This document shows, piece by piece, positions 1-16,963 of a stretch of DNA of 45,186 bases. Source of the stretch: Oculatellaceae cyanobacterium bins.114 (GTDB lineage Bacteria; Cyanobacteriota; Cyanobacteriia; Elainellales; Elainellaceae). The stretch covers positions 1 to 45,186 of the forward strand of contig JANRJA010000105.1 of NCBI GenBank assembly GCA_033764315.1, read 5' to 3'. The position numbers and the translations under genes are program-made. The notes under the pieces are model-generated. The model searched no databases. It worked only from the letters and a program-made list of their open reading frames with translations, and was not told the DNA's origin. Every line of letters begins with the position of its first letter. Within the stretch, counting starts at the first letter, position 1.

Positions 1-1571
1 CCATCGGTCATCATCGCTGGCTGAAATCGGGCTAATTGCTCTGTTTCTCGCAGAGCTTGCAAGTCTTGTTGAGCCGCTCTAGCAACATCTAAATCGGCTT
101 GAGAGGGATTGGGATAAAGGTTGCCGCTTTCACCGTCTAAAATGCAACGAGTGCCATCACTGAGATTGAGAATCGCTGGCCCTGCCCCTACGATCGCCGG
201 AATATCGAGCGATCGCGCAATGATGGCACTGTGTGAAGTCGGTCCTCCATAGGCCGTGCAAAAGCCCAGTGTCAACGCCGGATTCAGTCCCGCTGTGTCA
301 GAGGGGGTTAAATCTTCGGCAATCAAAATTACGGGAGCGTCAGGTGGAGTGGATTCATCCTCAACACGGTCTGCCAACAGTCGCAACACCCGCCGCCCGA
401 CATCGCGCAAATCAGTGGCTCGACCCGCCAACACTGGATCGGGGAGTTGCTCTAACGCATGGGCACGGTGTTCATAAGCTTGTTGCCATGCCCACGCCGC
501 ACTGTGTTTATCTTGCAAATGAGCGAGCGCCCCTTCTAGCAATTCTGGGTCACTTAAAAACTCCTGATGAGCTAAAAAGATCGCAGCTTTGCCTTTCCCC
601 GATCGCGATTGGACATCTTCATACAAGTCTTGCAATTGCACCTTGGCGGTCTCCACGGCTTGCCGCAGTCGCGTTTCTTCTGCAGTTGGATCAAGAGCCG
701 TGTGCTCAAACACAATCTTGCCGCGTTTGAACTGAAAAATAGGAGCGATCGCCAACCCTGGTGATGCTGCAATGCCTGGAATCGCAAAGGATTCAAAGGT
801 GATTGTTCGTCCCAAAGCGATGGGGGTTGTGTCTTCTCCTTCCTCGCCTAACCCCGCTTCGATTTCCCGTTTTAGGGTTGCCAGTGCCGCATCTTCATCA
901 CTCCCTTGTGCCATCAGACGCACAGTTTTACCCCCTGCGACGCCCAATTTTAACAATGACACCAGGCTTTTGGCACTGGCGGTTTGGGCGCCATACCGGA
1001 TCTGAATTTCCGACTCAAACGCTTTGGCAGCATTAACTAACACCGTAGCTGGACGGGCATGCAGCCCCACTGTACCCGGAATCACCACATCAATGACCTT
1101 GGTAAAATCAGAGGTCATTCCTGCGGCTGCACTTGCTTGAGGAGGTTGGTTAGTCAGACAAGCAATAATATCATCAGGGTTAAGGGTTTGCGCCAACCGC
1201 TTTAGAGTCGGTTCATCGTCTAATACGTGGGTCAGGTTTGAGAGAATTTCTAAATGTTCATCTGATTTAGCAGCAATCCCCACAACGAGGTAAACTTGCT
1301 CTCCAGGGTTCCACTCCACCCCACCCGGAATCTGTACTACAGAAATACCCGTTTTTAGAATTAAATCTCGATCCTTCGGTAGCCCATGCGGAATAGCAAT
1401 GCCATTTCCTAGATAGGTATGAGCTACTTTTTCTCGTTCCATCATGCTGGCAATGTAATCCGGCTGCATATTGCCGTTCTCAACCAACAATTTACCCGCC
1501 TGTGAAATAGCGTCTGCTTTGTTGACTGCTTCTGCTTTTATCTTGATGTTATGTCTGGTCAGGTTGATCAT
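1..1571 (-). CDS. fruB: PTS multiphosphoryl transfer protein, EIIA(Fru/Mtl)-HPr-Enzyme I fusion (FruB/MTP type); 3' end lies beyond the window edge
   Basis: Manual translation from ATG at 1571, open to position 1. MINLTRHNIKIKAEAVNKADAISQAGKLLV...MMEREKVAHTYLGNGIAIPHG (EIIA phospho-His motif); GLHARPA...ANAKSLVSLLKLG (HPr His and Ser motifs); GIAASPGLAIA...LIAEDLTPSDTAGL...GGPTSHSAIIARSLDIPAIVG (EI N-terminal and phospho-His domain). Confidence 0.95.
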   Translation of the reverse strand, partial: MINLTRHNIKIKAEAVNKADAISQAGKLLVENGNMQPDYIASMMEREKVAHTYLGNGIAIPHGLPKDRDLILKTGISVVQIPGGVEWNPGEQVYLVVGIAAKSDEHLEILSNLTHVLDDEPTLKRLAQTLNPDDIIACLTNQPPQASAAAGMTSDFTKVIDVVIPGTVGLHARPATVLVNAAKAFESEIQIRYGAQTASAKSLVSLLKLGVAGGKTVRLMAQGSDEDAALATLKREIEAGLGEEGEDTTPIALGRTITFESFAIPGIAASPGLAIAPIFQFKRGKIVFEHTALDPTAEETRLRQAVETAKVQLQDLYEDVQSRSGKGKAAIFLAHQEFLSDPELLEGALAHLQDKHSAAWAWQQAYEHRAHALEQLPDPVLAGRATDLRDVGRRVLRLLADRVEDESTPPDAPVILIAEDLTPSDTAGLNPALTLGFCTAYGGPTSHSAIIARSLDIPAIVGAGPAILNLSDGTRCILDGESGNLYPNPSQADLDVARAAQQDLQALRETEQLARFQPAMMTD

Positions 1572-1995
1572 CTTCAAAATGCCATTTCAAAAGTTCTTCA
1601 CAGTAAAAGTGCTGCTCATTTTAGCAACATAAATTTATTAAAAATGCGAGTCATTTTCTCATTTATCTATCTATAGGGAGATACCCATACGACGCAATTG
1701 ATCGTACTAAAAAGCCGATATATCCTCAGTTGCATTGATTACTGAGGGCATATTTATTATTTAGACATACTCTTAAATTAATGTATAGATGAACCGCTCT
1801 CAAAATCCTAAATTTAAAGTTTATTTAATTAGAGAAATATCCTTTATATATCACAATAAAACTTTAAATTGCTCAACACCCATCTTATCAATTAGCACGT
1901 TAGAATTTTTAATCTTAGGGGCTTTTCAACACAGTTATTTCTACAATTTTTTCTCTACATTCACTGAATTCAGCTCACCTCAAATAACCCAAAAA

Positions 1996-2030
1996 AAAGA
2001 TTGAAATGATTGAAATATAATTCAATCTTT
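1996..2030. promoter_or_regulatory. Inverted repeat AAAGATTGAA-N15-TTCAATCTTT with an internal GATTGAAAT direct repeat; candidate regulator site between fruB and ppsA
   Basis: Perfect 10-bp inverted repeat about 50 bp upstream of ppsA, in an AT-rich divergent intergenic region. Confidence 0.35.
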
Positions 2031-2081
2031 AATTTGGTTATTTGTTATATTTTTCACCCTCAATACTCCTAGAAAAGCATC

Positions 2082-4634
2082 ATGATTACAACTAAAAGGC
2101 CAGATATTTTCCCTTTGAATCCAGATCTAAAGGAAACAGAATTTGTTCTTTGGTTTGAACAAGTCGGAATTGTTGATGTCCCACTGGTGGGCGGAAAAAA
2201 TGCGTCGCTGGGAGAAATGATTCAACAACTGACTCCCAAGGGAGTTCGGGTTCCGACAGGCTTTGCCACTACGGCCTATGCTTTTCGTTACTTCATGGAA
2301 AAAGCAGGACTGAAAACCCGATTACAGCGGCTGCTGGTTGATCTGGATGTAGAGAATATCCAGAATTTGCAAGAACGTGGCAGACAAGCCCGCACATTGA
2401 TTCTCAATACACCGTTTCCATCAGAGTTAGAGCAAGCCATTATTCGCGCCTATGTGCAGTTGTCAGAGCAGTATGGAGTCTCGGTAGAAACCTGTGAGAG
2501 GCTAGACGGAGAGGACTTAGAAACGTGCCTCAGCCGTTATGGAGGCGTTGATGTAGCCGTGCGATCGAGTGCTACCGCCGAAGACTTGCCCGATGCGAGC
2601 TTTGCCGGACAACAAGACACTTACCTCAACATCAACGGCATTAATGATGTTTTAGAAGCCTGTCGCCGTTGCTTTGCCTCTCTGTTTACCGATCGCGCTA
2701 TTTCCTATCGCACCCTCAAAAACTTCGATCATTTTGAAGTTGCGCTATCGGTCGGAGTTCAAAAAATGGTGCGATCGGATCTGGCATCAGCTGGGGTAAT
2801 GTTTTCCATTGATACCGAGAGTGGTTTCAAAAATGCTGCCTTAATCACCGCAGCCTATGGTTTGGGTGAAAACGTCGTGCAAGGGGTTGTCAATCCTGAT
2901 GAATATATTGTGTTTAAACCCACGCTTCAGCAAGGGTTTCGCCCGATTCTGGAAAAGCGACTGGGCAGCAAAGACATCAAAATGGTATACGACTCAGGGA
3001 GTGGTCGTTCTACGACCAATATGCCTGTCTCCAAGGCAGACCAAGGAAAATTTGCTCTCAACGATGCCGAAATTTTGCAGCTAGCAGAATGGGCATGCAT
3101 TATTGAAACCCACTATTCCCGTGTTCAGGGCACCTATAGTCCGATGGATATTGAGTGGGCCAAGGATGGCACGACAGGTGATTTATTTGTAGTGCAGGCA
3201 CGTCCTGAAACAGTGCATTCTCAAAAAACGAGCAACGTTTTGCGAACCTATCAATTGAGCGATCGCCCCAAAGATCGAGGTGATGACTTCGCTAGTGTAT
3301 CTCTCACCCCAATTCTGACAGGTCGAGCCGTTGGTGAAATGATTGGTCAAGGCAAGGTTCGCATCATTACCGATATTCGTCGGTTAGATGAGTTTCAAGA
3401 AGGCGAGGTGTTGGTGACGACACGCACCGACCCCGATTGGGAACCGATTATGAAACGGGCGAGTGCAGTGATCACTAATCAAGGAGGACGCACCTGTCAC
3501 GCTGCAATTATTGCTAGAGAATTAGGCATTCCAGCGATCGTTGGGTGTGACCACGCAACGGAGATTCTAAAGGATGATCAGGAAGTTACGGTGTCCTGCG
3601 CCGAAGGAGAAGAGGGGCGCGTTTATAACGGCTTATTACCCTTTGAGATTCAAGAATTGCAGTTGGATGACCTACCACGCACTCGCACTCAGGTGTTGAT
3701 GAATGTGGGCAACCCACACGAAGCCTTTCGCCTAGCCTCTATTCCCAATGATGGCGTGGGGTTAGCCCGCACTGAGTTTATTATTGCCAACCACATCAAA
3801 GTTCACCCGTTAGCACTGCTCAATTTCAAACAACTTAAAGACAAAGCGGCGAAGTGGGAGATCTGTCAATTAGCGGCTCAGTATGAAGACTTACCAGAGT
3901 ACTTTGTCGATAAGTTGGCATCTGGGATTGGCATGTTAGCGGCGGCATTTTATCCGAAACCTGTGGTGGTGCGGATGTCGGATTTAAAGAGTAATGAATA
4001 TGCCAATTTGATTGGCGGACGTGAGTTTGAGCCAGAGGAAGAAAACCCAATGATGGGCTGGCGAGGGGCATCGCGGTATTATGACCCCAAATATCAGGCA
4101 GCCTTTGGGTTGGAGTGCCGAGCCTTTAAGCGGGTGCGTGAAGAAATGGGGCTAATAAACGTGATTCCTATGATTCCGTTTTGCAGAACTCCAGCGGAAG
4201 GGCGCAAAGTGCTAGAGGAAATGGCAAAACATGGACTGGTTCAAGGTGAGAATGGGTTACAAGTCTATGTCATGTGCGAACTGCCCAGCAACGTTGAACT
4301 TGCCGATCGCTTCAGTGAGATTTTTGATGGATTTTCGATCGGCTCCAATGACTTAACGCAACTCACGTTGGGACTCGATCGCGACTCTGCATTAGTGTCT
4401 CATTTGTTTGATGAACGCGATGAAGCCGTGAAACGCAAACTCGCGCGGGTGATTGCTACCGCTAAGCAGTTTAATCGCAAGATCGGCATCTGTGGTCAAG
4501 CTCCTAGCGACTATCCTGAGTTTGCTGAATTTTTGGTAGAACAAGGAATTGACTCGATTAGCTTGAACCCCGACTCGGTGTTGAAGACCTTGTTGGCGAT
4601 CGCCCAAACTGAAGCGACCCTAAAACAAACCTAA
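2082..4634 (+). CDS. ppsA: Phosphoenolpyruvate synthase (pyruvate, water dikinase)
   Basis: VGGKNASLGEM, VAVRSSATAEDLPDASFAGQQ, GGRTCHAAIIARELG, EENPMMGWRGASRY and FSIGSNDLTQL motifs. Confidence 0.97.
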   Translation: MITTKRPDIFPLNPDLKETEFVLWFEQVGIVDVPLVGGKNASLGEMIQQLTPKGVRVPTGFATTAYAFRYFMEKAGLKTRLQRLLVDLDVENIQNLQERGRQARTLILNTPFPSELEQAIIRAYVQLSEQYGVSVETCERLDGEDLETCLSRYGGVDVAVRSSATAEDLPDASFAGQQDTYLNINGINDVLEACRRCFASLFTDRAISYRTLKNFDHFEVALSVGVQKMVRSDLASAGVMFSIDTESGFKNAALITAAYGLGENVVQGVVNPDEYIVFKPTLQQGFRPILEKRLGSKDIKMVYDSGSGRSTTNMPVSKADQGKFALNDAEILQLAEWACIIETHYSRVQGTYSPMDIEWAKDGTTGDLFVVQARPETVHSQKTSNVLRTYQLSDRPKDRGDDFASVSLTPILTGRAVGEMIGQGKVRIITDIRRLDEFQEGEVLVTTRTDPDWEPIMKRASAVITNQGGRTCHAAIIARELGIPAIVGCDHATEILKDDQEVTVSCAEGEEGRVYNGLLPFEIQELQLDDLPRTRTQVLMNVGNPHEAFRLASIPNDGVGLARTEFIIANHIKVHPLALLNFKQLKDKAAKWEICQLAAQYEDLPEYFVDKLASGIGMLAAAFYPKPVVVRMSDLKSNEYANLIGGREFEPEEENPMMGWRGASRYYDPKYQAAFGLECRAFKRVREEMGLINVIPMIPFCRTPAEGRKVLEEMAKHGLVQGENGLQVYVMCELPSNVELADRFSEIFDGFSIGSNDLTQLTLGLDRDSALVSHLFDERDEAVKRKLARVIATAKQFNRKIGICGQAPSDYPEFAEFLVEQGIDSISLNPDSVLKTLLAIAQTEATLKQT

Positions 4635-4647
4635 ATCCCCGACCATT

Positions 4648-4983
4648 TTAGGAGCGGGGTGCATACATCATCACTAAAACACCCACTAAAACAATGGCTG
4701 TCCCCAACCAGTCCAATCGGTCGGGGGCAGTCTGATCAATTTGCCATCCCCACAGCAACGATAGGATGATAAAAATGCCCCCATAGGCTGCGTAAACTCG
4801 TCCAAAATTGGCGGGTTGAAACGTGGCGACAAATCCATAAACGATCAATAACACTGCTCCTACAGCAGTCAACCAGACACTTTTATCCTCACGTACCCAC
4901 AACCAAATTAAATATCCTCCACCAATCTCACAGAGTCCTGCCAAAACAAAAATCAAAAGAGATTGGAGTGGATTCATACTCAT
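4648..4983 (-). CDS. ynfA: YnfA/UPF0060 small membrane protein (SMR-like)
   Basis: [15 protein letters not shown] and [10 protein letters not shown] motifs; four TM segments. Confidence 0.9.
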
Positions 4984-5069
4984 TACTGCTGAGAAGTAAA
5001 GGTAATTAATAGTATCACTCTAGTATTGCTCTAAAAGCTCTCACAAGGTCTAGAAAGATGGGATACACC

Positions 5070-5873
5070 CTACTGAGAATCCTCTAATCTCAAACGATAT
5101 ACCTCTGGTAACTTCCACCAAGGAAGATGAGGGTATTCGTGGTGTTCGTGGTGATACCCAAAGTGATAACAAGTAATGAATGACCAAAAAGTTGAAAAAG
5201 TAGTACTCCTGGCTCGGTGCTTTGTTGTATAGCCATCGTCTGGTTCGCGATGGGTTAAAAATGTTCCAAAATAGAATAACTGCATTGAACTGAATATAGA
5301 AGGAAAAACCCAAAAAAGGCTGAGGTTCAGTTCAGAAATATGTAGAAAATAGTGAATGCTATGGAATAGCACTATTAACCCTAGTATTCTGCTCCAACTC
5401 CAATATCGTTGCATGAAGTAGAAGTACCAGCTAAAGAAATTAGTATGCCTGCCATCATGAAAATCTGGATCTAACTCAGTGCTGGGGTGTTTGTGATGCA
5501 ACCAGTGTTTTTGAAATAGCTCTCGATACGAAAACAGACCATATACAAATACAGCAAATGAACCGATCGCATTATTAACTCTAGCGTTCATCGGAAAAAC
5601 AGCACCATGCATAGCGTCATGAGCGGTGATAAACAGCCCACTGTACAAAAATGTTTGCCAGAGTAGAGCAAGTCCCATGAGCCAAGGGGAGCTTTTGGAT
5701 AGATCTGCTGAGAGCAGCATTACTAAACTAATCATCCACACACTCAAGATAATTGCGGCGATCGCCACTCCCTGAAATGGTTGAATATTTGCTTCTACCA
5801 ATGATGTGCGTGTTTTCTCTTTCAAGACAGAAAGTCCTAAATCTTTTGTTTTTAATGCTGGAAACCAAATCAC
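5070..5873 (-). CDS. crtW: Beta-carotene ketolase (membrane di-iron desaturase family)
   Basis: His boxes ITAHDAMHG, KHWLHHKHP...DPDF and CYHFGYHHEHHEYPHLPWWKLP; GTG start. Confidence 0.9.
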   Translation of the reverse strand: MIWFPALKTKDLGLSVLKEKTRTSLVEANIQPFQGVAIAAIILSVWMISLVMLLSADLSKSSPWLMGLALLWQTFLYSGLFITAHDAMHGAVFPMNARVNNAIGSFAVFVYGLFSYRELFQKHWLHHKHPSTELDPDFHDGRHTNFFSWYFYFMQRYWSWSRILGLIVLFHSIHYFLHISELNLSLFWVFPSIFSSMQLFYFGTFLTHREPDDGYTTKHRARSTTFSTFWSFITCYHFGYHHEHHEYPHLPWWKLPEVYRLRLEDSQ

Positions 5874-6092
5874 AATCCAAATCTCACTGGCATAAGTTAA
5901 AACCGAATGAACTCAAGAACTCAACTTGTTGAGCTTCTTAACATTTCTTCATCTTAACCATTTATTGGAATAATTTTGTCTGCCTTTTGTGCAATTTCTT
6001 CTTTAATACTCAAGTTTTAGGCTCCAATGCCCCTTTTGATAACCCAATGTGTTACTAAATACAATTTCTACTTCTTTATAATTTTGCCGATA

Positions 6093-6160
6093 TATAACAG
6101 TCCTAAATCAGTTGTGAGATGAGCAGGTTGTACTCTCACAAGCCATTTGGGATTGCCATA
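6093..6160. repeat. Short inverted-repeat (MITE-like) element
   Basis: TATAACAGTCCTAAATCAGTTGTGAGA ... TCTCACAAGCCATTTGGGATTGCCATA imperfect terminal inverted repeats. Confidence 0.55.
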
Positions 6161-6183
6161 GCTATCCTATTTGATTTATAAAA

Positions 6184-6225
6184 AAGGCTGTTTGTGAAGG
6201 TATCTGCCCTTCTGCAAACAGCCTT
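6184..6225. terminator. Stem-loop (terminator-like or repeat-derived)
   Basis: AAGGCTGTTTG..GAAGG / CCTTC..CAAACAGCCTT stem with A/T-rich flanks. Confidence 0.4.
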
Positions 6226-6248
6226 ATTAAACTCACTTCAAAATTACT

Positions 6249-6357
6249 CTCGTTCCTAGCCTCCTGGCTGGGAATATCAGGTAGCGGCTTTGCCGCTTCA
6301 TCTTATAGGAGGCAGAACCTCCAAATTTACGTTCCCAGGCAGAGCCTAAGGAACGAG
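6249..6357. repeat. REP-like composite palindrome (CTCGTTCC...GGAACGAG type)
   Basis: Terminal CTCGTTCCTAGCCTCCTGGCTGGGAA and GTTCCCAGGCAGAGCCTAAGGAACGAG hairpins enclose internal hairpins AGCGGC-TTT-GCCGCT and GGAGG-CAGAA-CCTCC. Confidence 0.7.
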
Positions 6358-6439
6358 GTTGTTGGTTTTAAGGGATTTGTGTTACACCGTAGCCTTCTGA
6401 GAGAGGACTAGGGGAGGGTGGAAAAGTTCTAAAACCCTT

Positions 6440-6617
6440 AATATTCCGTGTTGTGGCTGGCGAATCGAGTTTGCGCCTATTCGATCGAAGTCCGCAGCTT
6501 GACAGCGCGACTAAGCTTCGCTGAATGTCCTGTGCAAACTAGATGGATCGCAGACTAGATGGCTCAAGGTTTTGCTCTTATAGCGTTCGGCTGAGGCTCG
6601 CACCAAAATCTGCGATC
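6440..6617. repeat. Degenerate copy of the GCGAAT(G/C)AATTCGCGGCTA...TATAGC palindromic repeat family
   Basis: GCGAATCGAGTTTGCGCCTA, GAAGTCCGC and GGTTTTGCTCTTATAGCGTTCGGCTGAGGCTCG align by eye with the copies at 8801-8992 and 17805-17920. Confidence 0.5.
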
Positions 6618-6619
6618 GC

Positions 6620-7051
6620 TTACACCTCAACCTCCCAATCTTCAACTTGCAACCCATCCACCCGTCCAAACTCTCGTGTGTTGTGAGTGACCAAGGTTAG
6701 ATTGTTTGCTAGAGCAACCCTTGCGGTATCTGCGAAGCAGCACGCAGCTATTTGTAAGTCATAAGCTCCAATGGGTGTTCCGTTAGTTTCTAACTGCGAT
6801 CGAATCACCCCAAAGGTCGTAGCCGCAAGATCGTCAAACGGCAGCGAGACAAATTGTGCCAAGAATTTTTGCTGTAAGGCAAAGTTGCGTTCCGGATCGG
6901 CACTTTTCATCGCCCCAAAGCAAAGTTCTGCTTTGACGATCGAACATACCGCAATCTCTTGAACCGGAATCGCCTCAAGCCTTTGCTTTAAGTTCAAGTT
7001 TCTGCCTTTTAGATAAATGATGCAGACATTGGTATCAAGCAAATAGTTCAT
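6620..7051 (-). CDS. vapC: VapC-family PIN-domain toxin carrying an apparent 8-aa in-frame insertion
   Basis: YLLDTNVCI, VKAELCFGA, PIGAYDLQIAA and LTLVTHNTREFGRVDGL.EDW motifs. Confidence 0.92.
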   Translation of the reverse strand: MNYLLDTNVCIIYLKGRNLNLKQRLEAIPVQEIAVCSIVKAELCFGAMKSADPERNFALQQKFLAQFVSLPFDDLAATTFGVIRSQLETNGTPIGAYDLQIAACCFADTARVALANNLTLVTHNTREFGRVDGLQVEDWEVEV

Positions 7052-7272
7052 TCCAGAGGTTCGCGTTCAGGTTGTTCGGGTTGAGGATGTCTAAAGAATG
7101 AGTCATCCTGGATGCAGCCGTAAAACTGCGAAAGATCGACCACTTTAACCTCTTTGGGCAAGCTAGTTTGATAGACAATGACAACCTCAATATCCGTATC
7201 CCTCATATCAGGCAAATGAACCTTCAAAAAACCATCACTACCGATGTGAGATTTGAGTGTGATGCTGTGCAT
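7048..7272 (-). CDS. Putative antitoxin of the VapC toxin
   Basis: 74-aa ORF (MHSITLKSHIGSDG...FYGCIQDDSFFRHPQ) overlaps the vapC start by 4 nt (ATGA); GGAGGG RBS upstream of the ATG at 7272. Confidence 0.7.
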   Translation of the reverse strand: MHSITLKSHIGSDGFLKVHLPDMRDTDIEVVIVYQTSLPKEVKVVDLSQFYGCIQDDSFFRHPQPEQPEREPLE

Positions 7273-7288
7273 AATTTTCCCTCCATCC

Positions 7289-7576
7289 CTACAGACTAAG
7301 ATCCTCACCCAATTCTTGCAAAGTTCCCTGCAATTCGGCTATGACTGCTTCCAACTCCCCGATCGCCTCCTGAGCAAGAATTATAGATGCAGGTAATTCG
7401 CTGTTCTTCTCCCCGCTTTCATCCTTGAGCCAGGAGATATCTAAATCGTCATCCCGTTTCACAATCCAGTCACGAGAAAACCATCTCAAGTGTCCTGACT
7501 CCCCTGTGTCCGTGCGCTGTGCCAGACTCGCGATACTACCAAACGGATTATCACCAAAAGCAGCTTTAAATTCTTC
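7289..7576 (-). pseudogene. hsdM: C-terminal remnant of a type I restriction-modification methyltransferase subunit
   Basis: EEFKAAFGDNPFG...RWFSRDWI...DLDISWLKDES...LAQEAIGELEAVIAELQ resembles the HsdM C-terminus. The upstream catalytic part is replaced by the 21-bp array. Confidence 0.75.
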
Positions 7577-8070
7577 AATGTTATTTGAAGCGATCGCGAT
7601 CTTACAAAAGGAGATTTGCGGGCTACTTAAGAATGTCTGTCTATTATAAAGTGCGATCGTGATCGCACAAGGAAACATCGGCGTGTTACTCAATGCAATC
7701 GGCGTGTTACTAAATAACATCGGCGTGTTACTCGATGCGATCAGCGTGTTACTAATTAACATCGTCGCGTTACTCGATGCGATCGTAATGTTATTGAGTA
7801 ACATCATCGCATGCATAATAAAATATTATGTTGATCTAAGTAAAGTATTGGTTTTTCTTAGGAAAATGGCGATCGCACAAAGCAACAGCGGATTGTAACT
7901 CAATACGATTGGTTTATAAGTGATACCGATTTAATGTTTGATTGTGACACATAACTGGGTAGGGGCGTTTCGCGAAACGCCCTTACAGAATCATATGCAG
8001 CGAAGCCAATTCAAATTGGTATGAGTGCGATCGCGATCGTATAAAGAAATATCGCACTGTTTCTAAATAA
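7577..8070. repeat. Degenerate 21-bp tandem repeat array (about 18-20 units) interrupted by a ~100-bp element
   Basis: Core units from 7676: CATCGGCGTGTTACTCAATGC, AATCGGCGTGTTACTAAATAA, CATCGGCGTGTTACTCGATGC, GATCAGCGTGTTACTAATTAA, CATCGTCGCGTTACTCGATGC, GATCGTAATGTTATTGAGTAA. The register continues degenerately on both sides. Confidence 0.9.
7921..8024. mobile_element. Non-autonomous element with TACCGATTT/AAATTGGTA termini, TGA at both ends and an internal GTAGGGGCG REP-like hairpin
   Basis: Removing it restores a 21-mer in register (GATTGGTTTATAAGTGAGTGC). Internal palindrome GTAGGGGCGTTTCGCGAAACGCCCTTAC. Confidence 0.8.
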
Positions 8071-8298
8071 CGCTCATTGTTCTCATCCAAAATCCCCAAT
8101 AGCGCACCAAAAATCCACACCGCAGAGTTGAGCAAAAGGGGTTTACCCCTCCATAAGGGCAATCAGGAAGGGAATATTTACGCAAATGGAATTCCTCTTT
8201 TCCATGATGCTCCACCCAAATTCCCCAAATTCTCGCAGGTGGATGGGCTAACGCAATGAATATAGTGCAGAGGTAGTTTTAACCCAGGAGTATCTACC

Positions 8299-8745
8299 GT
8301 GCCACGTCCAAAACGATCCTCTCCAACCTTGCAAAAAGCTGAAAAGCGTGAAGCTGCTCTGGAATCGCTGAGTCCCACCTTGGATCTCGGCAATGGATTA
8401 ACTGTAGAAACCTATTCCACTCTGATTCAAGCCCTCCGCACTCAGATTACCACCTACAACACGGCTCTTTCTAACCTGGATGACCTCTCCCGCCAAATCA
8501 AGGGCACCGAACAGCAACTGCGAGATCTGTCGGAACAGATGTTGTTAGGGGTTGCTGCCAAATATGGCAAAAACAGTAGCGAATACGGCAAAGCAGGTGG
8601 TGTTCCCAAAAGTGAGCGTCGTCGCTCGACCCGTAAGCCACTCGCTGCAATTAGCAGTGTCTCAGAACCAACCGTGATGGCAACATCTACCAATGAGGCG
8701 ATCGCTGCATCGGTCAATGGCAATGGAAAAACGCTGGTTTCTTAA
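8299..8745 (+). CDS. Conserved hypothetical alpha-helical protein (basic termini, central coiled coil)
   Basis: AGGAG RBS with GTG start. MPRPKRSS..L.KAE.R...LDLGNGLT...YNTAL...MLLGVAAKYGKNSSEY.KAGGV.KSERRR resembles an uncharacterised family I recall from cyanobacteria. Confidence 0.85.
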   Translation: MPRPKRSSPTLQKAEKREAALESLSPTLDLGNGLTVETYSTLIQALRTQITTYNTALSNLDDLSRQIKGTEQQLRDLSEQMLLGVAAKYGKNSSEYGKAGGVPKSERRRSTRKPLAAISSVSEPTVMATSTNEAIAASVNGNGKTLVS

Positions 8746-8800
8746 CTAAATCGGTGTAGGTCGTCGTGCCATCGGTTTGGCATAAGGAACGCGAATTAAA

Positions 8801-8992
8801 TAACATCAGGTCAGTCTAACAGCCTAGCGAATGAATTCGCGGCTATCCCAGCCAAGTCCGCCGACACGGACTACGAAAGATGAATGGTTTAACGAACCGA
8901 CGCAGGTCGGTTTTTTTCGTATAGCGTTCGACTGAGCTCACGCCGAAGTCTGCGGTTTTAACCCCCAGAATCCTTATTCCGAATTCCTGTTA
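8801..8992. repeat. Palindromic dispersed repeat element with a nested ~24-nt small dispersed repeat at 8926-8949
   Basis: Ends TAACATCAGGTCAG / CCGAATTCCTGTTA. Hairpins GCGAATGAATTCGC, AGTCCG..CGGACT and AACCGACGCAGGTCGGTT. Homologous to 17805-17920. Confidence 0.7.
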
Positions 8993-9136
8993 TAGCCATA
9001 GTCATCCAGGTTAGGACAAGGGGCTTGAAAACAGTGTAAATGGTGCAAATGCAACCCCTCCCGACCTCCCCTTACCAAGGGGAGGTGCCGTAGGCGGTGG
9101 GGTCAAGTGCAAGGTTCACTGCTTAAATGGGTATAA
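8990..9136. repeat. Chimeric repeat element; 9041-9136 is a near copy of 16171-16266
   Basis: GGTGCAAATGCAACCCCTCCC.ACCTCCCCTT..CAAGGGGAGGT...GGGGTCAAGTGCAAGGTTCACTG.TTAAAT.GGTA is shared; the left end differs (TATAGCCATAGTCATCCAGGTTAGGACA). Confidence 0.8.
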
Positions 9137-9249
9137 CATGAGCAACTTCCTTGCTGCACAGATTTGGCAGTGCCAAACCCCTTCACAGAAGAAGATACAT
9201 CTGCTTGCGGTCATTGCCCATAGCAATTGTCGAAACAGTTGATATATTA

Positions 9250-9876
9250 TTAATCGCGACGATTTTGATAATCTTCAGAAGATTTGGGATCTAACTCCCA
9301 GCGGCGATCGTCTCGTTCTTCTAACATGTCATTGGTTCTCAAGAAACTGCGATCGTCCATTTCTAGACCTACCGCTGCACCTATCTCATCCACAACATCC
9401 TGATCTGGAGTACTAGCGGTTCCACCCACTGCCTCTTCCCCGACAGCGTCTGCGTCGTCGTAATTGGCATCTACATCACCCCCGGTGATGACGTAATCGG
9501 GTTCACCTATGGTATGTTCGCCCCGTCGCGAATAGGTGCCAGCGCGATCGCTCGGTTGTCCTTGTAGCCCTGTGCCATAGGATTCTGTAAATTCCTGGGG
9601 CAGGTCGCTGACTGATGCTTGATCATCTGTATCATCAACAATGCCATCATCATCAGCGTCTAAATCATCTGTGTCATCCGATGCGACTGTGTCGAACGCT
9701 GCCTGATCGAGAGCCACTTCTCTTAAACCCACTTCAGATTCTAAGTCTTCTAACACGTCTAAATCTGGGTCTATCCGATTATCTGACCCATACTCTGCTT
9801 CAAACTCACGTTCAACTTCTCGTCTGATTGCCTCAGAGTCTGCTCCGTAATCAGGGGTGTTAGATAGGTCAGCCAT
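9250..9876 (-). CDS. DUF6335-like acidic protein
   Basis: ITGGDVDANY...VGEEAVGGTASTPDQDVVDEIGAAVG...LEERDDRRWELDPKSSED; very Asp/Glu rich. Confidence 0.75.
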   Translation of the reverse strand: MADLSNTPDYGADSEAIRREVEREFEAEYGSDNRIDPDLDVLEDLESEVGLREVALDQAAFDTVASDDTDDLDADDDGIVDDTDDQASVSDLPQEFTESYGTGLQGQPSDRAGTYSRRGEHTIGEPDYVITGGDVDANYDDADAVGEEAVGGTASTPDQDVVDEIGAAVGLEMDDRSFLRTNDMLEERDDRRWELDPKSSEDYQNRRD

Positions 9877-9997
9877 AACTGTTTGTCCTGTCAGTCGTTA
9901 TTCTGCTATCTGCACAATAACTGAACTGAAGTGCTATCAAACTCTTCACGAAGATAGACAACAGTGATGCTGAACGGAGTAACTTGAGACGGGTTAT

Positions 9998-11221
9998 TCA
10001 ACTATCGAGCGATTGACGCAACAAAAACTGACGAATGGCTGGATCTTCTACCAGCCCGATCGCACGAGTATAGGCTGCATGAGCCTCAGTGGTTTGCCCC
10101 AAGCGTTTCAGTAAATGGGCTTTAAGTGCCCAATAGGGTTGGTAGTTAGCCACCGTTTCAATGGGCAACCGTTGCAACAACGCCCACCCTTGCTGTACCC
10201 CATTGGCTTCCGCGATCGCTGCTGCACGACCCACCAGTGCACCGAGGGTTGGGGCAATCTGAATCAGCCCTTCATAGAGTAGAGCCAGTGCATTCCAATC
10301 CATTTGCCCGATGATGGCTCGTTGAGCGTGAATAGATTGAATCGCGGCTTCCAGTTGGAACCGTCCCAGTTTCTCCAAGGTTGCCGCTTGAGTCAGTTGA
10401 GATTCTGCCTCCTCAATCAGCGGCATTGACCAAAGTGCTACATCCTGTTCCAACAGCGGCACATAGGCTCCATCAGGGGCACGACGCGCTTCCCGACGCG
10501 CTTCACAGTGCAACATCAAAGCCAGTAGTCCTCGCGCTTCCGGTTCATTTGGGATCAACTGCACACAGAGACGCGCTAGCCAAATGGCCTCTTCGGTCAG
10601 TCCTTTTTGCCGCGGATCTGCGCCTGTAATATTGTCCCAACCGTTGCTATAAGCCGCGTAAATTGCCTCCAACACGGCCTCTAAGCGAGGCGGTAGATCG
10701 CTGGCTTCTGGCAACTCAAAGCCAATGCTCGCGTCTCGAATTTTGCTCTTGGCCCGCACCAAGCGTTGCCCCATTGTGGTGGGTGCCACTAGAAACGCTG
10801 AAGCAATTTGTGCAGCGTTTAATCCCAAAACGGTTTGTAACATTAGAGGCGTGCGAACCTCAGGGGCGATCGCCGGATGAGCACAAATAAACAGCAACTT
10901 CAACCGTTCATCAGGAAAGATCACATCCATATCAGGGTCTTCTCTCCCTTCCACTGAGAATAGTTTGAGAGTGTTGACGACAGTCGCGCCAGCCTGGGTA
11001 TGGCGACACTGATCAATCAAGCGACGACGGGCGGCTACCAGTAGCCATGCTTCTGGGTTATCAGGCACCCCCCGTTCTGACCAAGTTTTTAAGGCAGATA
11101 AAAACGCATCGCCGAGCGCATCTTCTGCGATCGCCAGATCTCGGGTTTGCACCGCCAAATAAGCAATCAATCGCCCATAGGAGTTACGGGCTGCCAGTTC
11201 AGCGACTCGACGTGCGTCCAT
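9998..11221 (-). CDS. ECF RNA polymerase sigma factor with DUF6596/TPR C-terminal extension
   Basis: YGRLIAYL...AEDALGDAF...W...GVPDNPEAWL; DERLKLLFICAHPA; EPEARGLLALM; LLEQD..LW; GRFQLEAAIQ. Likely start MDARR at 11221. Confidence 0.9.
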   Translation of the reverse strand: MDARRVAELAARNSYGRLIAYLAVQTRDLAIAEDALGDAFLSALKTWSERGVPDNPEAWLLVAARRRLIDQCRHTQAGATVVNTLKLFSVEGREDPDMDVIFPDERLKLLFICAHPAIAPEVRTPLMLQTVLGLNAAQIASAFLVAPTTMGQRLVRAKSKIRDASIGFELPEASDLPPRLEAVLEAIYAAYSNGWDNITGADPRQKGLTEEAIWLARLCVQLIPNEPEARGLLALMLHCEARREARRAPDGAYVPLLEQDVALWSMPLIEEAESQLTQAATLEKLGRFQLEAAIQSIHAQRAIIGQMDWNALALLYEGLIQIAPTLGALVGRAAAIAEANGVQQGWALLQRLPIETVANYQPYWALKAHLLKRLGQTTEAHAAYTRAIGLVEDPAIRQFLLRQSLDS

Positions 11222-11229
11222 GTGCGCTT

Positions 11230-11847
11230 CTAGCCTCTCGGTGCTGTTTGTTGCCATGCGGGCAACAGGTCGATCCGAGCATACCAGGCACGGATATGGG
11301 GATAGTCTTCTAAGGGAAACTGTCCTGGCACGGCATAGGTCAAATCAGCCGCAACCGAAAAATCGGCTAAGGTGAGCGTGTCATTCACCAAAAACTTGCG
11401 TTCCGAGAGATGGTTATCCAAGGCGATCGCATTTTGATGAAAGATCTCGGTTGCCCGTTGCACCACATGTGGATCGGGTTCACCCAATTGCAACAGGGGT
11501 TTGATAAAATTTTCAAATTGCAAAGGCTGACACCCTTGATGCCAGTGGGCGAGCTGCCAACTCTGCCAACGCAGAATATCGGCACGGCTTTTAGGATCGG
11601 TTGGGAACAGCGAATTGGGAACTTGATCGACCAGATATTGCATGATGGCAGTAGACTCCCAGAGAACGAAGTCACCATCTTGCAACACCGGAGTTCGACC
11701 TGTAGGATTCAACTTCAAAAAGTCGGGGGTGCGGGTTTCGCCTTTTTGTAAATCAACCAATTGGAGTTCCAGCGGAAGCTCCAGGTGAATGGCAACGGCA
11801 TGAGCCTTGCGGGTATTGGGCGAGGGAGGAAAGTAATAGAGTTTCAT
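11230..11847 (-). CDS. Glutathione S-transferase
   Basis: MKLYYFPPSPN, LNPTGRTPVLQDG, LWESTAIMQYL and TLADF motifs; likely start 11847. Confidence 0.92.
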   Translation of the reverse strand: MKLYYFPPSPNTRKAHAVAIHLELPLELQLVDLQKGETRTPDFLKLNPTGRTPVLQDGDFVLWESTAIMQYLVDQVPNSLFPTDPKSRADILRWQSWQLAHWHQGCQPLQFENFIKPLLQLGEPDPHVVQRATEIFHQNAIALDNHLSERKFLVNDTLTLADFSVAADLTYAVPGQFPLEDYPHIRAWYARIDLLPAWQQTAPRG

Positions 11848-11858
11848 GGGTCTTGCTC

Positions 11859-12212
11859 CTATCCTTGCATAGGCAGAATAGGACGCACTTCGACACCGCA
11901 ATTACTGGCGGCAGGGCAACGGGCTGCCCAATCTAGTGCGGCATCCAAATCAGGAACCTCAATTAAAAAGAAGCCTCCCAATTGTTCTTTGGTGTCAGCA
12001 AAAGGCCCATCTTGAACTTTGCGCTGTCCGTCATGCAATCGCACGGTGGTTCCTGTTGAGGCATCATGCAGGGCGGCTCCTCCGGTGATCACTCCAGCTT
12101 CGGCTAGTGCTTGTGAATAAGCTTTGTAGGCTCCCCAGTAAGCTTCTTGCTGATCGTTGGTGCGATTGCTGACGATCGTCTCGGTTTCATAAACCAAAAT
12201 GGCATATTGCAT
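11859..12212 (-). CDS. YciI/DGPF-domain protein
   Basis: VQDGPFADTKEQLGGFFLIEVPDLDAALDWAARCP...VEVRP; usual partner of DUF6596 ECF sigma factors. Confidence 0.92.
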   Translation of the reverse strand: MQYAILVYETETIVSNRTNDQQEAYWGAYKAYSQALAEAGVITGGAALHDASTGTTVRLHDGQRKVQDGPFADTKEQLGGFFLIEVPDLDAALDWAARCPAASNCGVEVRPILPMQG

Positions 12213-12343
12213 TGTTTGTCCTCATTGAGAATGGGTTAAGAGCCTCGTTTGTTGTGGGCTTATTAAGATGACGTGCGATCGCCTCCCATTTCGACATCTC
12301 CAACAAAATTTTTTTAGCCCTCAACCATGATCCACATGAGAGG

Positions 12344-12997
12344 CTAATTTAGATGTCCTGTTTTGACATAAATTAGACATCCTTCCCGGCTAAAAGGGGT
12401 GTGCATACTACCAGATGGATTGCGAATCCAGGTGCCCTTAGGATAGCTGCCAAACTCATCCTCAAAGACTCCTTCTAGCACAAAAATTTCTTCCCCTCCC
12501 CAGTGGCGGTGCGATTGAAAGTGTGTTCCCGGTGCCCACTTCACCAGAGCCACATTTTCAGTACCAAAACTATGCAGCGGCATCACTTGCAACCCATCCA
12601 CTAAACCTGGAAACCAGGGCGATCGCTGCGTATTCACGACCACCCGTTGCTGATCATCAGGGTGCATCTGCCACAGCTTCACCAAAATTGTGCAACCGTC
12701 TCGGCTGGAGGGGGTGTGAGTAGACCCCACCGGATTGCGAATGTAGGTGCCCACCGGATAGTCGCCGTGTTCATCTGAAAACACACCGTCAAGTACCAAG
12801 AACTCTTCACCGCCCCCGTGGGTGTGAGGTGAAAAGTGACTGCCAGGAGCATACCGCACGATCGATGTAGCACGGGCAACTTCTGCTCCGTCACGCTCTA
12901 ACATGCGGCGTTGTACTCCCGGCATGGGCGAGTCAACCCAGGGAATATCGTCACTCAAGGCGATCGCCCGTTCAGTTAAATCAGCATGAAGTTTCAT
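12344..12997 (-). CDS. Double cupin (ChrR-like Cupin_7) protein
   Basis: Two H.H.GGEE..VL.GVF.DE.G.YP.GT.IRNP.GS.HTP repeats; likely start MKLHAD at 12997. Confidence 0.9.
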   Translation of the reverse strand: MKLHADLTERAIALSDDIPWVDSPMPGVQRRMLERDGAEVARATSIVRYAPGSHFSPHTHGGGEEFLVLDGVFSDEHGDYPVGTYIRNPVGSTHTPSSRDGCTILVKLWQMHPDDQQRVVVNTQRSPWFPGLVDGLQVMPLHSFGTENVALVKWAPGTHFQSHRHWGGEEIFVLEGVFEDEFGSYPKGTWIRNPSGSMHTPFSREGCLIYVKTGHLN

Positions 12998-13023
12998 CCA
13001 AGTTCTCCTGATCTCTAATCCTG

Positions 13024-13803
13024 CTAATACTGATTGCGACCTGCCATTACACCCCCATCGACATCCCAAATTGCCCCCGTGACCCAAGTCGCCTTGTCGG
13101 AGAGCAAAAAAGCAACGGTTTCCGCCACATCTTCTGAGCGACCGACACGACCGATGGGATGGAACGTGTTAAACCCTTGCAGAGTAGCGTGAACTTGATC
13201 TTTAGGAATGAACCCCTCATAGATGGGTGTTTCCACCACGGCAGGAGACACTGCATTGACCCGAATACGGTGACTCGCTAGCTCCATTGCCAGATGTTGC
13301 GTCAGCGAGTGCAGTCCTGCTTTTGCCATAGAGTAAGCCGACGAGGGCGTTGCCTGCACGGCCTGTTTTGCCCACATTGAGCCAATATTGACGATCGCCC
13401 CACCCTGCCCCTGCTCTACCATATTTTTTGCAACCGCTTGGGTCATAAAAAAAGTTGCTTTATTAATCTCCAAATATAAGTCGTAGTCGGCTTCGGTGTG
13501 CTCTAAAAACGATTTTGGCAGAAACACACCCGCCGCATTGACCAGCAATTTTGCAGTCGTGTATTGGGTAGTCAGGCGATCGATCAAGGCGTCTCGTTCC
13601 GTGGGGTTAGTGATGTCCGCTTGTTCGTCCCATACCGTTCCAAAGGGACTGAGTTCAGCGATCGCCCCTTGCAATTTATCCTGCCGTTTGCCAATCAACA
13701 CGGCGGATCCGCCGTGTTGCACAATCAACCGAGCAACACTTTTGCCAATGCCACTGGTGCCACCAACAACAATGAGAGTTTGTCCAGAAAATACAGAAGT
13801 CAT
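13024..13803 (-). CDS. SDR family oxidoreductase
   Basis: GGTSGIG, LVNAAG, YSMAK and IRVNAVSP motifs. Confidence 0.93.
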
Positions 13804-13836
13804 AGGGTTTTCTTTTGAACAATAAACGACATTAAA

Positions 13837-13854
13837 CTATCTACTAGTAGGTAG
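13837..13854. promoter_or_regulatory. Putative TetR operator (CTA(C/T)CTACTAGTAGGTAG)
   Basis: 18-bp near-perfect palindrome upstream of the SDR gene; a second copy lies at 14775-14792. Confidence 0.7.
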
Positions 13855-13873
13855 ATAATAGGGCAAAAAAAAT

Positions 13874-14446
13874 TTACCCTGGCATCAACACCGCTAACAG
13901 CGAGTTGATAATCCAATCGAATGTGGCTTCGCTATCGTTTGATGTGCGAGCCATTAACTGAGCACCTTGCAGCGTCGCCAACACGATTGCAGCTTCCCCC
14001 GCAGGAGTGGTGCGTAGATTGAAACTGCCCGCCGCATGGCCCCGCTTGAGCACAGCGGCCAACCAAACCTCTGTCTCTACAAAAAATGCGCTCAATTCCT
14101 GTTGCACAGGCTTGGGCAAGACGGCAACCTCGGCTGAGAGAATGCCGCACAGACACATCTGATCCTGGCTCAAGCCGTTACGATAAAGACGACAAAACTG
14201 GATCAGTTGCTCTTGTGGGTCAGAGGTCGTTTGTTCAAGCTGTTTGAGGTTTTGCCGAACCCGCTCACGATAGCGATCGACTAGTGCTTTGGCTAGCTCT
14301 TCTTTTGAGCAAAAGTGATAGTGGATGCTGGCTTTGCGAATTCCCACTTGTTCTGAAATATCGGCATAGCTAAAGGCACTATAACCCCGGGATCGCACTA
14401 AGTCTTGAGCGACATCGAGAATCTGTTGAGCGGTTTCGGCTTTCAT
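13874..14446 (-). CDS. TetR/AcrR regulator (NemR-like)
   Basis: ILDVAQDLVRSRGYSAFSYADISEQVGIRKASIHYHF HTH; MCLCG in the ligand domain. Confidence 0.93.
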   Translation of the reverse strand: MKAETAQQILDVAQDLVRSRGYSAFSYADISEQVGIRKASIHYHFCSKEELAKALVDRYRERVRQNLKQLEQTTSDPQEQLIQFCRLYRNGLSQDQMCLCGILSAEVAVLPKPVQQELSAFFVETEVWLAAVLKRGHAAGSFNLRTTPAGEAAIVLATLQGAQLMARTSNDSEATFDWIINSLLAVLMPG

Positions 14447-14514
14447 ACGTTAATTTTGATTCGATCCGGTGTGGGGTCGATAACCGTTTGACAAACAGCG
14501 AAGCGATCGCACCC

Positions 14515-14730
14515 TCAAGTACAGGCAACACAAGATGCTTTGAGAAGCTGCTCTGCACAAGCCACTTGCTGTTCTGCTTGAGCAATTTTGGTAAGCAATG
14601 TGGTGCGCGTTTGTTGCAATGTTTCCAGTTGCTCTTCAATCTCCTCTAACTCGATCAAAAGCACAGGCAGGATAGTGCCTTTTTCTAAGTTTGAAGATAA
14701 TTGATGGTTGGGCGATCGCTGGAGATTCAT
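14515..14730 (-). CDS. Small coiled-coil hypothetical protein
   Basis: GAGG RBS; heptad pattern LEEIEEQLETLQQTR; lies between the operator and tetR. Confidence 0.55.
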   Translation of the reverse strand: MNLQRSPNHQLSSNLEKGTILPVLLIELEEIEEQLETLQQTRTTLLTKIAQAEQQVACAEQLLKASCVACT

Positions 14731-14774
14731 AGTTATTGCCTCTCAATCAATGCGAAACACAATAGCTTGATTCT

Positions 14775-14792
14775 CTACCTACCAGTTGGTAG
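14775..14792. promoter_or_regulatory. Putative TetR operator, second copy (CTACCTACCAGTTGGTAG)
   Basis: Matches 13837-13854 at 15 of 18 positions; adjoins a TTGACA -35 on the minus strand (TGTCAA at 14794-14799). Confidence 0.7.
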
Positions 14793-14883
14793 GTGTCAAG
14801 CTTTTGATGGTTAAATTCCATTCACACGTAGGTAGTGGTCTAAAAGTAATGATTTTGGAGTGAGGATGTGCCCCGCGCAGCAA

Positions 14884-15129
14884 CTACCCACACGTAAACT
14901 GAATCGGCTTACCATTCACTTCAACGAGGTAATCGAGCCGAATTTCAGTCCCATCCTCTAGCTTGAGAAAATCTGCTTTATTCGCCGCGTAGACATCCAC
15001 AATGCGGCTGTCTACTTCTACCACATCATTGGTTGCTGTGCGATAAATAATTTTGCACCGTTGCCGTAGCGTTGCCAGGGATTCTAATTCGTCATGAAAA
15101 CTACAAGCAACTAACTCATACGGGTTCAT
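14884..15129 (-). CDS. Rof/YaeO-like (Rho-binding antiterminator-like) small protein
   Basis: MNPYELVACSFHDELE...DFLKLEDGTEIRLDYL resembles the Rof pattern Y....C...D.LE...E.RLD; GGAG RBS; start 15129. Confidence 0.6.
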   Translation of the reverse strand: MNPYELVACSFHDELESLATLRQRCKIIYRTATNDVVEVDSRIVDVYAANKADFLKLEDGTEIRLDYLVEVNGKPIQFTCG

Positions 15130-15154
15130 AGAATGAAGCTCCTTTCTGTCCTGT

Positions 15155-15583
15155 TTAGCTTTGACGCTCCCAATGAAACTTGCGATCGGATGCTTGAATG
15201 GGCACATCATTGATGCTGGCAAATCGCCGCATCATTAACCCATTTTCAGCAAATTCCCAGTTTTCGTTGCCATAGGAGCGATACCAAAAACCAGCATCAT
15301 CATGCCACTCATATTCAAACCGTACGGCAATCCGATTATCCATAAAACACCAGAGTTCTTTCTTCAAACGGTAGTCGAGTTCTTTTGCCCATTTGCGTTT
15401 GAGGAACTCAACGATCGCCGCTCGTCCTGTCAAAAACTCAGCTCGATTTCGCCACTCTGAATCTTCGGTATACGCCAGGGCCACTCGTTCTGGGTTGCGC
15501 GTATTCCAGGCATCTTCTGCAGCTTGCACTTTGGTCTTAGCCGTTTCGAGGGTAAAAGGGGGTAAAGGGGGTTTGGTTTCCAT
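15155..15583 (-). CDS. DUF1348 / NTF2-like protein
   Basis: [35 protein letters not shown]...[10 protein letters not shown]...MRRFASIND; likely start 15583. Confidence 0.92.
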
Positions 15584-15667
15584 GATGGGGTTAATGCTTG
15601 GTGTGAATGCTTGGTGTGAATTGAGGTTGAGATGCTGAAACAACGAGGTAATGAAATGCACCCTCAA

Positions 15668-16117: not shown

Positions 16118-16148
16118 AATGAACTCCTCTCAAGTAAGTGATGTCAAG

Positions 16149-16266
16149 TCATACCAATTTGATGTGAAAACGGTGCAAATGCAACCCCTCCCAACCTCCC
16201 CTTGGCAAGGGGAGGTACCGCAGGTGGTGGGGTCAAGTGCAAGGTTCACTGTTTAAATTGGTATCA
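16149..16266. mobile_element. Non-autonomous element with TACCAATTT/AAATTGGTA termini and TCA at both ends
   Basis: Removing it restores the tandem GTGATGTCAAGTCA-GTAATGTCAAGTCA-GTGATG. Internal CCTCCCCTTG.CAAGGGGAGG hairpin. Confidence 0.85.
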
Positions 16267-16954: not shown

Positions 16955-16963
16955 AGTGCTCTC

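Follow-up and report, generated by a model that had tools for sequence, protein, structure and literature searches.

A 21-bp Tandem Array Coupled to the Gene of a Small Basic Helical Protein in Cyanobacteria

What does a tandem array of 21-bp units do when it lies directly upstream of a gene for a small basic protein that belongs to no named family? The question is raised by a contig of 45,186 nucleotides (JANRJA010000105.1, assembly GCA_033764315.1) from Oculatellaceae cyanobacterium bins.114, the whole of which is called the window here. An initial annotation, made from the letters of this DNA, joined the array and the gene into one candidate system and offered three mechanisms: a phased scaffold for a polymerizing DNA-binding protein, a structured RNA array, and a variable locus coding for heptads. 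Of these, the scaffold is the best survivor, with binding and polymerization both hypothetical.

The array and its surroundings

The main block of the array occupies positions 7590-7923, where 16 units stand in register and a weak 17th can be placed at 7569. The annotated 21-bp periodicity is borne out by a lag-21 identity of 0.48 over 7569-7923, compared with 0.26 ± 0.02 in 2000 shuffles, the highest of which reached 0.35. A homogeneous center with a 42-bp higher order had also been described, and it corresponds to a core of six units with a 42-bp higher-order repeat at 7674-7799 (TRF reports periods of 21 and 42 for 7674-7785). A profile built from these six units scores at phase-0 positions only, from 7590 to 7925; some of the divergent flank units are weak when taken alone, with identities to the core of 0.38-0.48 (null 95th percentile, 0.48). 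The AT-rich units at 7800-7883, which look degenerate, form a conserved sub-block, two to three units long, rather than random decay, and this sub-block is common to several genomes (loci L003, L006, L007, and L097). The units run head-to-tail without spacers, none of the array features has a strand, and the array has no Rfam match at E ≤ 1, all in keeping with the earlier remark that it is not CRISPR-like.

The register is broken once, by a 98-bp MITE (7924-8021, no strand) with inverted ends TACCGATTT/AAATTGGTA and with TGA duplicated at 7921-7923 and 8022-8024. This element is a later insertion that stands outside the module, and it is dispersed in the genome, with 15 copies of at least 90 bp among 38 BLAST hits and a 3-bp TNA target duplication. 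Beyond the MITE only phase 17 scores, at units 8027 and 8048, which are the final two of the array (8027-8068) and fall into register once the insertion is allowed for. The 98 bp of the MITE and the 3 bp of the duplication make 101 bp, or 17 mod 21, which explains the shift exactly; the ancestral array thus comprised some 18 units free of indels, and the present DNA is interrupted. The array as a whole comprises about 18 units of 21 bp over 7590-8068 (16 before the MITE and 2 after it, plus the weak one at 7569). The annotated figure of about 18-20 units without indels thus holds for the unit count and for the ancestral array, whereas the present array is split; likewise, the divergent flanks are in phase at the cited examples 7592, 7655, and 7865, whereas the unit cited at 8029 is off by 17 mod 21 because of the 101 inserted bases.

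To the left, the array meets the 3′ remnant of an N-6 DNA methylase (HsdM-like) gene on the minus strand (7289-7573), a bystander that stops at the array's edge and whose similarity to genome G007 ends at 7573. A vapBC pair (VapC NF047863 above cut-off) sits behind the remnant, within 6620-7573 on the minus strand, and the same arrangement of vapBC and methylase remnant is found in G007 and G014. To the right, two more dispersed MITE-like repeats with many genome copies follow directly after the gene (8795-9135), and simple repeats and MITEs abound in the genome as a whole. HIP1 octamers in the window, and homologues that bear the names of filamentous genera, mark the DNA as cyanobacterial. 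In G001, a genome of the same genus, the same interval carries other genes and the array-gene block is absent; the closest G001 homologue of the window gene sits elsewhere, with an array of its own. Empty-site alleles, which the annotation had envisaged, were sought, and no clean one was found, the G001 interval holding different cargo.

A protein family and the arrays upstream of its genes

The gene behind the array (8299-8745, plus strand) encodes, as annotated, a 148-aa protein with basic ends and a long helix. Its core spans residues 1-112, with helices at 9-24, 36-89, and 94-98, and a confident AlphaFold monomer computed from 142 sequences (pLDDT 89.7, pTM 0.61) is all-helical, with three helices, a disordered tail, and no beta core. 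The long helix measures 54 residues in 141 of the 142 sequences, the median pI of the core is 9.7, each end has a net charge of about +4.5, and Tyr53, Asn54, Glu71, and Tyr96 are conserved. The gene is under purifying selection: compared with five relatives, the window gene gives a dN/dS of 0.11-0.16, and the value does not exceed 0.39 in 11 pairs. Searches of Pfam, NCBIfam, PHROGs, and PADLOC gave no informative family match, the PDB searched by sequence gave one DARPin hit without a passing stretch, and the ESM Atlas gave only unnamed cyanobacterial clusters. Foldseek (PDB and viral) and VIA-align likewise found no informative fold among generic helical hairpins (best Z 7.2, with an rmsd of 2.7 and 64 aligned, and 6.7). 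Missing matches of this kind do not establish a new fold.

At 50% identity the family falls into 1002 clusters (E ≤ 0.001). Its distribution is patchy, with members in 28 of 151 genomes of the class (1-13 matches per genome) and 2-17 matches in each of five named Nostocales genomes, and it appears to extend to bacteria without hormogonia. It is found on 1 of 72,556 plasmids and on none of the phage or IMG/VR contigs searched. A quick tree (97 rows, 105 columns, many open forks) is made up of old subfamilies that span orders, and the paralogues within a single genome are such subfamilies.

All five family genes of the source genome have a 21/42-bp array upstream, and the unit sequences of the five arrays are unrelated. 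The annotation held that similar genes often lie beside such arrays and suggested autocorrelation upstream of homologues as a check, and this view proved sound: an array with a period of about 21 bp is present upstream in 129 of 134 related loci (lags 21 and 42 plus 41, 62, 63, 83, and 84), downstream in 3 of 137, and in 1.7% of 1500 random windows. The count of 134 excludes nine duplicates that had been taken out beforehand; the counts still overstate independence because many of the loci are close kin and at least four duplicates remain. A first set of 82 loci, scored by whether lag 21 or 42 reached 0.5, gave 58 arrays upstream; downstream the figure was 2 of 80, and at greater distance 5 of 73. 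Distant metagenome loci (GC content 37-60%; 14 of 16 analyzed, 11 with at least 250 bp upstream) showed a clear array in 8 of those 11, a borderline one in 1, and none within 300-400 bp in 2. The near-identical relative L001 has merely a weak periodic signal (0.54), far upstream. Taken together, a general coupling of array and gene is strongly supported.

Upstream placement is narrow, with the array ending at a median of −164. Array 8-mers are common only to proteins that are more than 60% identical, and arrays are retained across proteins that are just 30-50% identical, with unrelated unit sequences. No third gene recurs among 600 neighboring ORFs of 85 loci, where the largest clusters (11 loci) are syntenic housekeeping genes. 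For two family proteins, P0234 and P0187, gene callers stretch the N-terminus upstream into the array, which places false heptad-repeat N-termini in databases.

The arrays are direct tandems of 6-26 units with partial internal dyads only. When lags from 10 to 109 were compared in 112 loci, the best was 21, 42, 63, 84, or 105 in 82, was 62, 83, or 103 in 26, and was some other value in 4. The period is therefore near 21 in 108 of 112 loci while unit sequences are unrelated between subfamilies, which strongly supports the annotated idea that length is kept despite sequence drift. Near-perfect higher-order repeats of 41, 62, and 83 bp occur in family arrays, many of the 62-bp repeats being 92-99% perfect. 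That a unit one base short is allowed and other lengths are rare would fit a physical spacing of about two helix turns. The arrays were also examined for direct periodicity of 10-11 bp, and none was found. Imperfect dyad symmetry reaches p ≤ 0.05 in 27 of 72 arrays versus 5 of 72 in a mirror control, a tendency as expected for a dimer site; in the window's own array it is not significant (p = 0.36). The rule of the family, a period kept and a sequence changed, is more like that of eukaryotic satellite DNA than that of bacterial operators.

What the array may do

Between the array and the gene lies a predicted promoter (8234-8266, plus strand), in which CGCAGG at 8234-8239 is followed after 21 nt by a −10-like TATAGT at 8261-8266, and downstream of it AGGAG at 8286-8290 (plus strand) reads as a ribosome-binding-like site. 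The promoter architecture is family-wide. CTCAGG-N21-TAnnnT occupies the array-gene interval in 37 of 75 non-redundant loci, and a broader form does so in 57 of 98 (null about 1 in each case), with the reservation that the patterns were derived from the same sequences in which they were counted and are flattered by these nulls. The motif shifts as a unit when its distance to the start codon changes, and a generic sigma-70 scan missed it. In 85 loci the array never overlaps the predicted −10, the median gap being 72 bp and 13 gaps exceeding 200 bp.

Promoter sequences also connect the family to expression data. Data Set S2A of Gonzalez et al. 2019 (PMC6495340) provides 80-nt promoter sequences from Nostoc punctiforme, and by eye three of these match the DNA upstream of a family gene: Npun_F5542 that of locus L179 (74 of 80 bases), F2654 that of L182 (75 of 80), and F1224 that of L175 (73 of 80). 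Looser matches were seen for F0036 (L169) and R4620 (L178/L182 type). These genes, assigned by promoter sequence alone, come only from upregulated promoters that fit the family motifs and are not a census. From 0 h to 12 h of hormogonium induction, the values in that source rise from 43 to 18681 for F5542 (434-fold), 27 to 5042 for F2654 (187-fold), 7 to 2063 for F1224 (295-fold), 76 to 5599 for F0036 (74-fold), and 10 to 2002 for R4620 (200-fold), and the induction of all five is nearly lost in sigC and sigJ mutants (PMC6495340). Their listed start sites, which the authors call inexact, fall about 17-56 nt before the start codon and downstream of the arrays, and the genes are listed there only as hypothetical. 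Npun_F5542 has no mention in the main texts of the literature searched. None of the five belongs to the window gene's own subfamily in the tree, and a sister-subfamily candidate, Npun_R6447, which is assigned by synteny only, rises merely from 50 to 123. R6447 occupies the site beside acsF at which other Nostoc carry a family gene. Around Npun_R1256 and R2526, mapping by synteny gave no candidate gene. Npun_R1246 (4 to 506) carries the family promoter motif and may be another member. Judged from the promoter-matched Nostoc genes, the protein of the module is probably switched on when filaments turn motile. An unexplained second motif, GTAWTTTTRCKG, in clusters 10, 11, and 18 of Data Set S2A (PMC6495340) is loosely like the upstream half of the family promoter; a strict form of it is found in only 4 of 92 loci.

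The source genome also contains arrays that stand apart from family genes. It has 129 periodic regions, from which 27 further candidate arrays were chosen by eye; 6 lie beside genes of a second family, about 16 lack such a gene, and 5 were dropped. C97, C102, C144, C232, and C155:33606 were struck from the gene-less list as coding sequence or weak. The second family, also helical and without annotation, has proteins of about 155 aa and 7 copies in the genome (C24:4938, C206:39571, C187:29124, C50:1564, C196:5329, C79:5075-5563, and C213:126-476; L131-L136), with the array upstream in three and downstream in three. A SigJ box, GGGnAnnnT, is present upstream of 4 of the 7 genes (null mean 0.46, P = 0.001), namely the copy at a contig end and all three whose array is downstream; the three with upstream arrays lack it. 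Homology between the two array-linked families was not detected (hhalign probability 0.2%), and one second-family homologue is on a Thiodictyon plasmid.

Several gene-less arrays are 67-86% identical to gene-linked ones, and window-type arrays occur in G012 and G008 with no family gene within the 4-5 kb examined. Among three gene-less sites, one is common to the same-genus G001 and none is found in four same-family genomes; at the common site the ends are conserved and the inner units are rewritten. Many arrays (gene-less C12, C41, C47, C160, C189, and others, as well as L015) adjoin restriction-modification, toxin-antitoxin, TIR, or STAND-type genes recognized by eye. The gene-less array C241:12150-12700 (L183) is joined to a gene's 3′ end, and in G001 C9 (L207) that gene is about 5 kb downstream of the homologous array; the C241 joint carries HIP1-like sequence, and the array edge is a deletion breakpoint there, as in the window. 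An all-against-all BLAST of the 27 arrays, each taken with 500 bp of flank, paired up units and unrelated MITEs and no shared array ends.

We tentatively favor, as quite possible, a DNA-binding protein, induced during development, that plays an architectural part by occupying cognate 21-bp arrays, both the one beside its own gene and others scattered through the genome. The small basic protein would likely dock on the array upstream of its gene and sit on it repeatedly, probably as a dimer, once per two helix turns. If the long helix formed an antiparallel dimer, its two DNA-contacting ends would be placed about 21 bp apart. The 54 residues at 1.5 Å each come to about 80 Å, close to the 71 Å of 21 bp; pending a dimer, the agreement is no more than a coincidence of geometry, and coiled coils in general tolerate indels poorly. 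Each subfamily would read its own array type, the gene would be strongly induced in hormogonia in dependence on SigC/SigJ, as in the relatives, and the protein would coat gene-linked and gene-less arrays as a bridging, anchoring, or compacting factor during development, a role other than that of a classical operator-bound repressor. In favor of this model stand the linkage of array and gene, the kept period with free sequence, the dyad symmetry of many arrays, the promoter motif between array and gene, and the basic ends of the protein. The fast turnover of gene-less sites speaks against it, being a poor fit to a fixed chromosomal role, as do the patchy distribution of the family, the weak signal at L001, the lack of significant dyad symmetry in the window's array, and the absence of the window gene's subfamily from the induced Nostoc genes.

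It is unlikely, yet worth weighing, that the array is instead a cis-regulatory element. Its many sites would then serve as an upstream operator or activator, recognized either by the protein, which would thus regulate its own gene, or by some other factor. Its constant upstream position within a narrow interval (end at a median of −164, 72 bp before the −10) and the very large induction ratios of the matched Nostoc genes (PMC6495340) are what such an element would predict, as is the frequent location of gene-less arrays ahead of variable genes such as TIR, STAND, and RM genes. However, the array does not overlap the predicted −10, and insertions of more than 200 bp are tolerated in 13 of 85 loci; the second family has its array downstream in 3 of 6 cases, and the promoter motif is near just 2 of 16 gene-less arrays, which is about chance.

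A selfish or domesticated mobile element of the RAYT-REPIN kind, in which the protein would mobilize or amplify arrays and the gene-less arrays would be non-autonomous copies, strikes us as rather improbable. The family is indeed patchy and multicopy and has no conserved neighbors, G001 lacks the block at the syntenic position, gene-less copies are gained and lost, and the conserved Tyr53, Asn54, Glu71, and Tyr96 could be catalytic. Nevertheless, no transposase, recombinase, or HUH match was obtained in Pfam, NCBIfam, PHROGs, PADLOC, or the PDB, and neither shared terminal repeats nor target duplications were seen around the arrays inspected by eye. The antiquity of the subfamilies that serve as paralogues in one genome, the single plasmid record, and the lack of phage and IMG/VR hits also oppose mobility.

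The second mechanism of the annotation, an RNA array, is disfavored and seems to us very unlikely. In this reading the array would give rise to a repetitive transcript bound by the protein and serving as antitoxin, guide, or scaffold, comparable to those of type III toxin-antitoxin systems or TIGR arrays. Some arrays do fold well, with z below −2 for 6 sense and 11 antisense strands of 40 arrays scored (44 chosen), yet the mean z is just −1.0 and −1.4, neither strand is preferred (the sense strand is the more stable in 18 of 40), and no Rfam match was found. A predicted antisense RNA across Npun_R6449-R6447, which rises from 63 to 1190 (19-fold) in hormogonia and depends on SigJ and SigC (PMC6495340, Data Set S1), would cross an array if R6447, placed by synteny only, were a family member. 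At the Chlorogloeopsis locus L015, RNA contigs from three of four runs thin out between array and gene with differing end points, and those of one run bridge the two. The TSS table of Koch et al. 2017 (PMC5580265), searched with five motifs, yielded no family locus. Against an RNA role, the promoter motif and the published start sites are downstream of the array, the left flanks are variable as far as the first unit and show no conserved leader, and the protein has no ToxN, Nop, or Cas match. Because a conserved promoter-like motif lies between array and gene, the array probably acts as DNA rather than RNA.

We find it hard to credit that the arrays are functionless minisatellites, a by-product (for example, of slippage where the protein or another factor sits) that hitchhikes with the gene. 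Fast rewriting of inner units with persistent ends and a genome abundant in simple repeats and MITEs are compatible with such an origin, but retention in 129 of 134 loci, across proteins 30-50% identical with unrelated units, and the clustering of periods on 21 in 108 of 112 loci speak against it. The third annotated mechanism, a heptad-coding frame or its decayed remnant, draws on 21 being seven codons and on open frames across the window array on both strands (7659-7898, plus; 7289-7816, minus), and it is refuted for the family and retains a negligible chance here: the minus-strand frame is read-through into the HsdM remnant, near-perfect 41-, 62-, and 83-bp repeats break any frame (best periods of 62, 83, or 103 bp in 26 of 112 loci), there is no 3-nt codon periodicity in the family arrays, and all six frames are stopped in 53 of 98, so coding is excluded.

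Returning to the architectural DNA-binding protein, the bolder form of that proposal is a new class of bacterial centromere-like or chromatin system, which we put forward as an unlikely but consequential possibility. Ruler proteins with a fixed 54-residue helix would impose a 21-bp period on fast-evolving satellite arrays, and each genome would hold several orthogonal protein-array pairs. By coating dozens of places on the chromosomes, the proteins would compact, anchor, or partition them in the reductive divisions from which hormogonia arise and in equivalent developmental states of other phyla. The matched Nostoc genes, induced up to 434-fold (PMC6495340), bring named genes, sigma-factor dependence, and predicted binding sites together, making the system directly testable in a genetically tractable strain. 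A large family without annotation or structural relative is of interest in itself, and orthogonal protein-array pairs would serve as DNA-scaffolding parts.

Comparison with known systems

In plasmid centromeres with their binding proteins (parC-ParR, tubC-TubR) and in iteron arrays, tandem helically phased DNA adjoins a gene for an NTPase (ParA, ParM, TubZ) or a Rep protein, the known centromere-binding folds are RHH, HTH, and wHTH, and the protein binds its neighboring array cooperatively. The module resembles these systems in having a tandem, helically phased array right upstream of the gene for a small basic protein and in having cognate pairs that differ between modules. Unlike them, it is chromosomal and multicopy, with 1 of 72,556 plasmid records and no NTPase or Rep partner among its neighbors, and its array lies upstream of the promoter rather than over it, with relatives under developmental control. 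Fold searches with its protein yielded generic helical hairpins only and no RHH, HTH, or wHTH. Type III toxin-antitoxin systems (ToxIN, CptIN, TenpIN), in which one transcript, started ahead of the array, covers both array and toxin gene and the toxin is a ToxN/CptN/TenpN endoribonuclease, share with the module, as do CRISPR, TIGR-Tas, and VIPR, a repeat array beside a small or uncharacterized protein gene. They differ in that the promoter of the module is predicted between array and gene, the published start sites of matched genes (inexact, and none for the window locus) lying downstream of the array, and in that its protein has no ToxN/CptN/TenpN match in Pfam, NCBIfam, or PADLOC and an all-helical model without a beta core. 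The periods given for CRISPR, TIGR, and VIPR arrays are 60-79, 18, or 5 nt (10.64898/2026.10.21.760802), in contrast to the period of 21 without variable spacers found here.

The distribution of the module is like that of RAYT-REPIN as outlined by Bertels and Rainey 2011 (PMC3116915), with several distinct genes per genome, each beside its own flavor of repeat, and dispersed gene-less copies. Its repeats, however, form head-to-tail 21-bp arrays and not inverted REP doublets, its protein is all-helical, has 148 aa, and gives no IS200-like tyrosine transposase profile match, and its gene-less arrays number about 16, not hundreds. BrickBuilt, a minisatellite-MITE of Porphyromonas gingivalis (PMC4596501), is likewise an intergenic, spacer-less tandem repeat of about two helix turns with many genome copies. 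Its 23-nt unit has one sequence and lies inside a MITE with leader, tail, and inverted ends, and its abstract names no partner protein (PMC4596501), whereas the module has a period of 21, unit sequences that are unrelated between subfamilies, and a partner gene that is almost always adjacent. We found no description of the module in the literature searched, which left out subscription papers and bioRxiv supplements. By analogy, then, the module would function as a centromere array does together with the protein that binds it, and its distribution is that of RAYT-REPIN, yet it lacks defining features of both, as it does of CRISPR and type III toxin-antitoxin systems, and it appears to differ from BrickBuilt as well.
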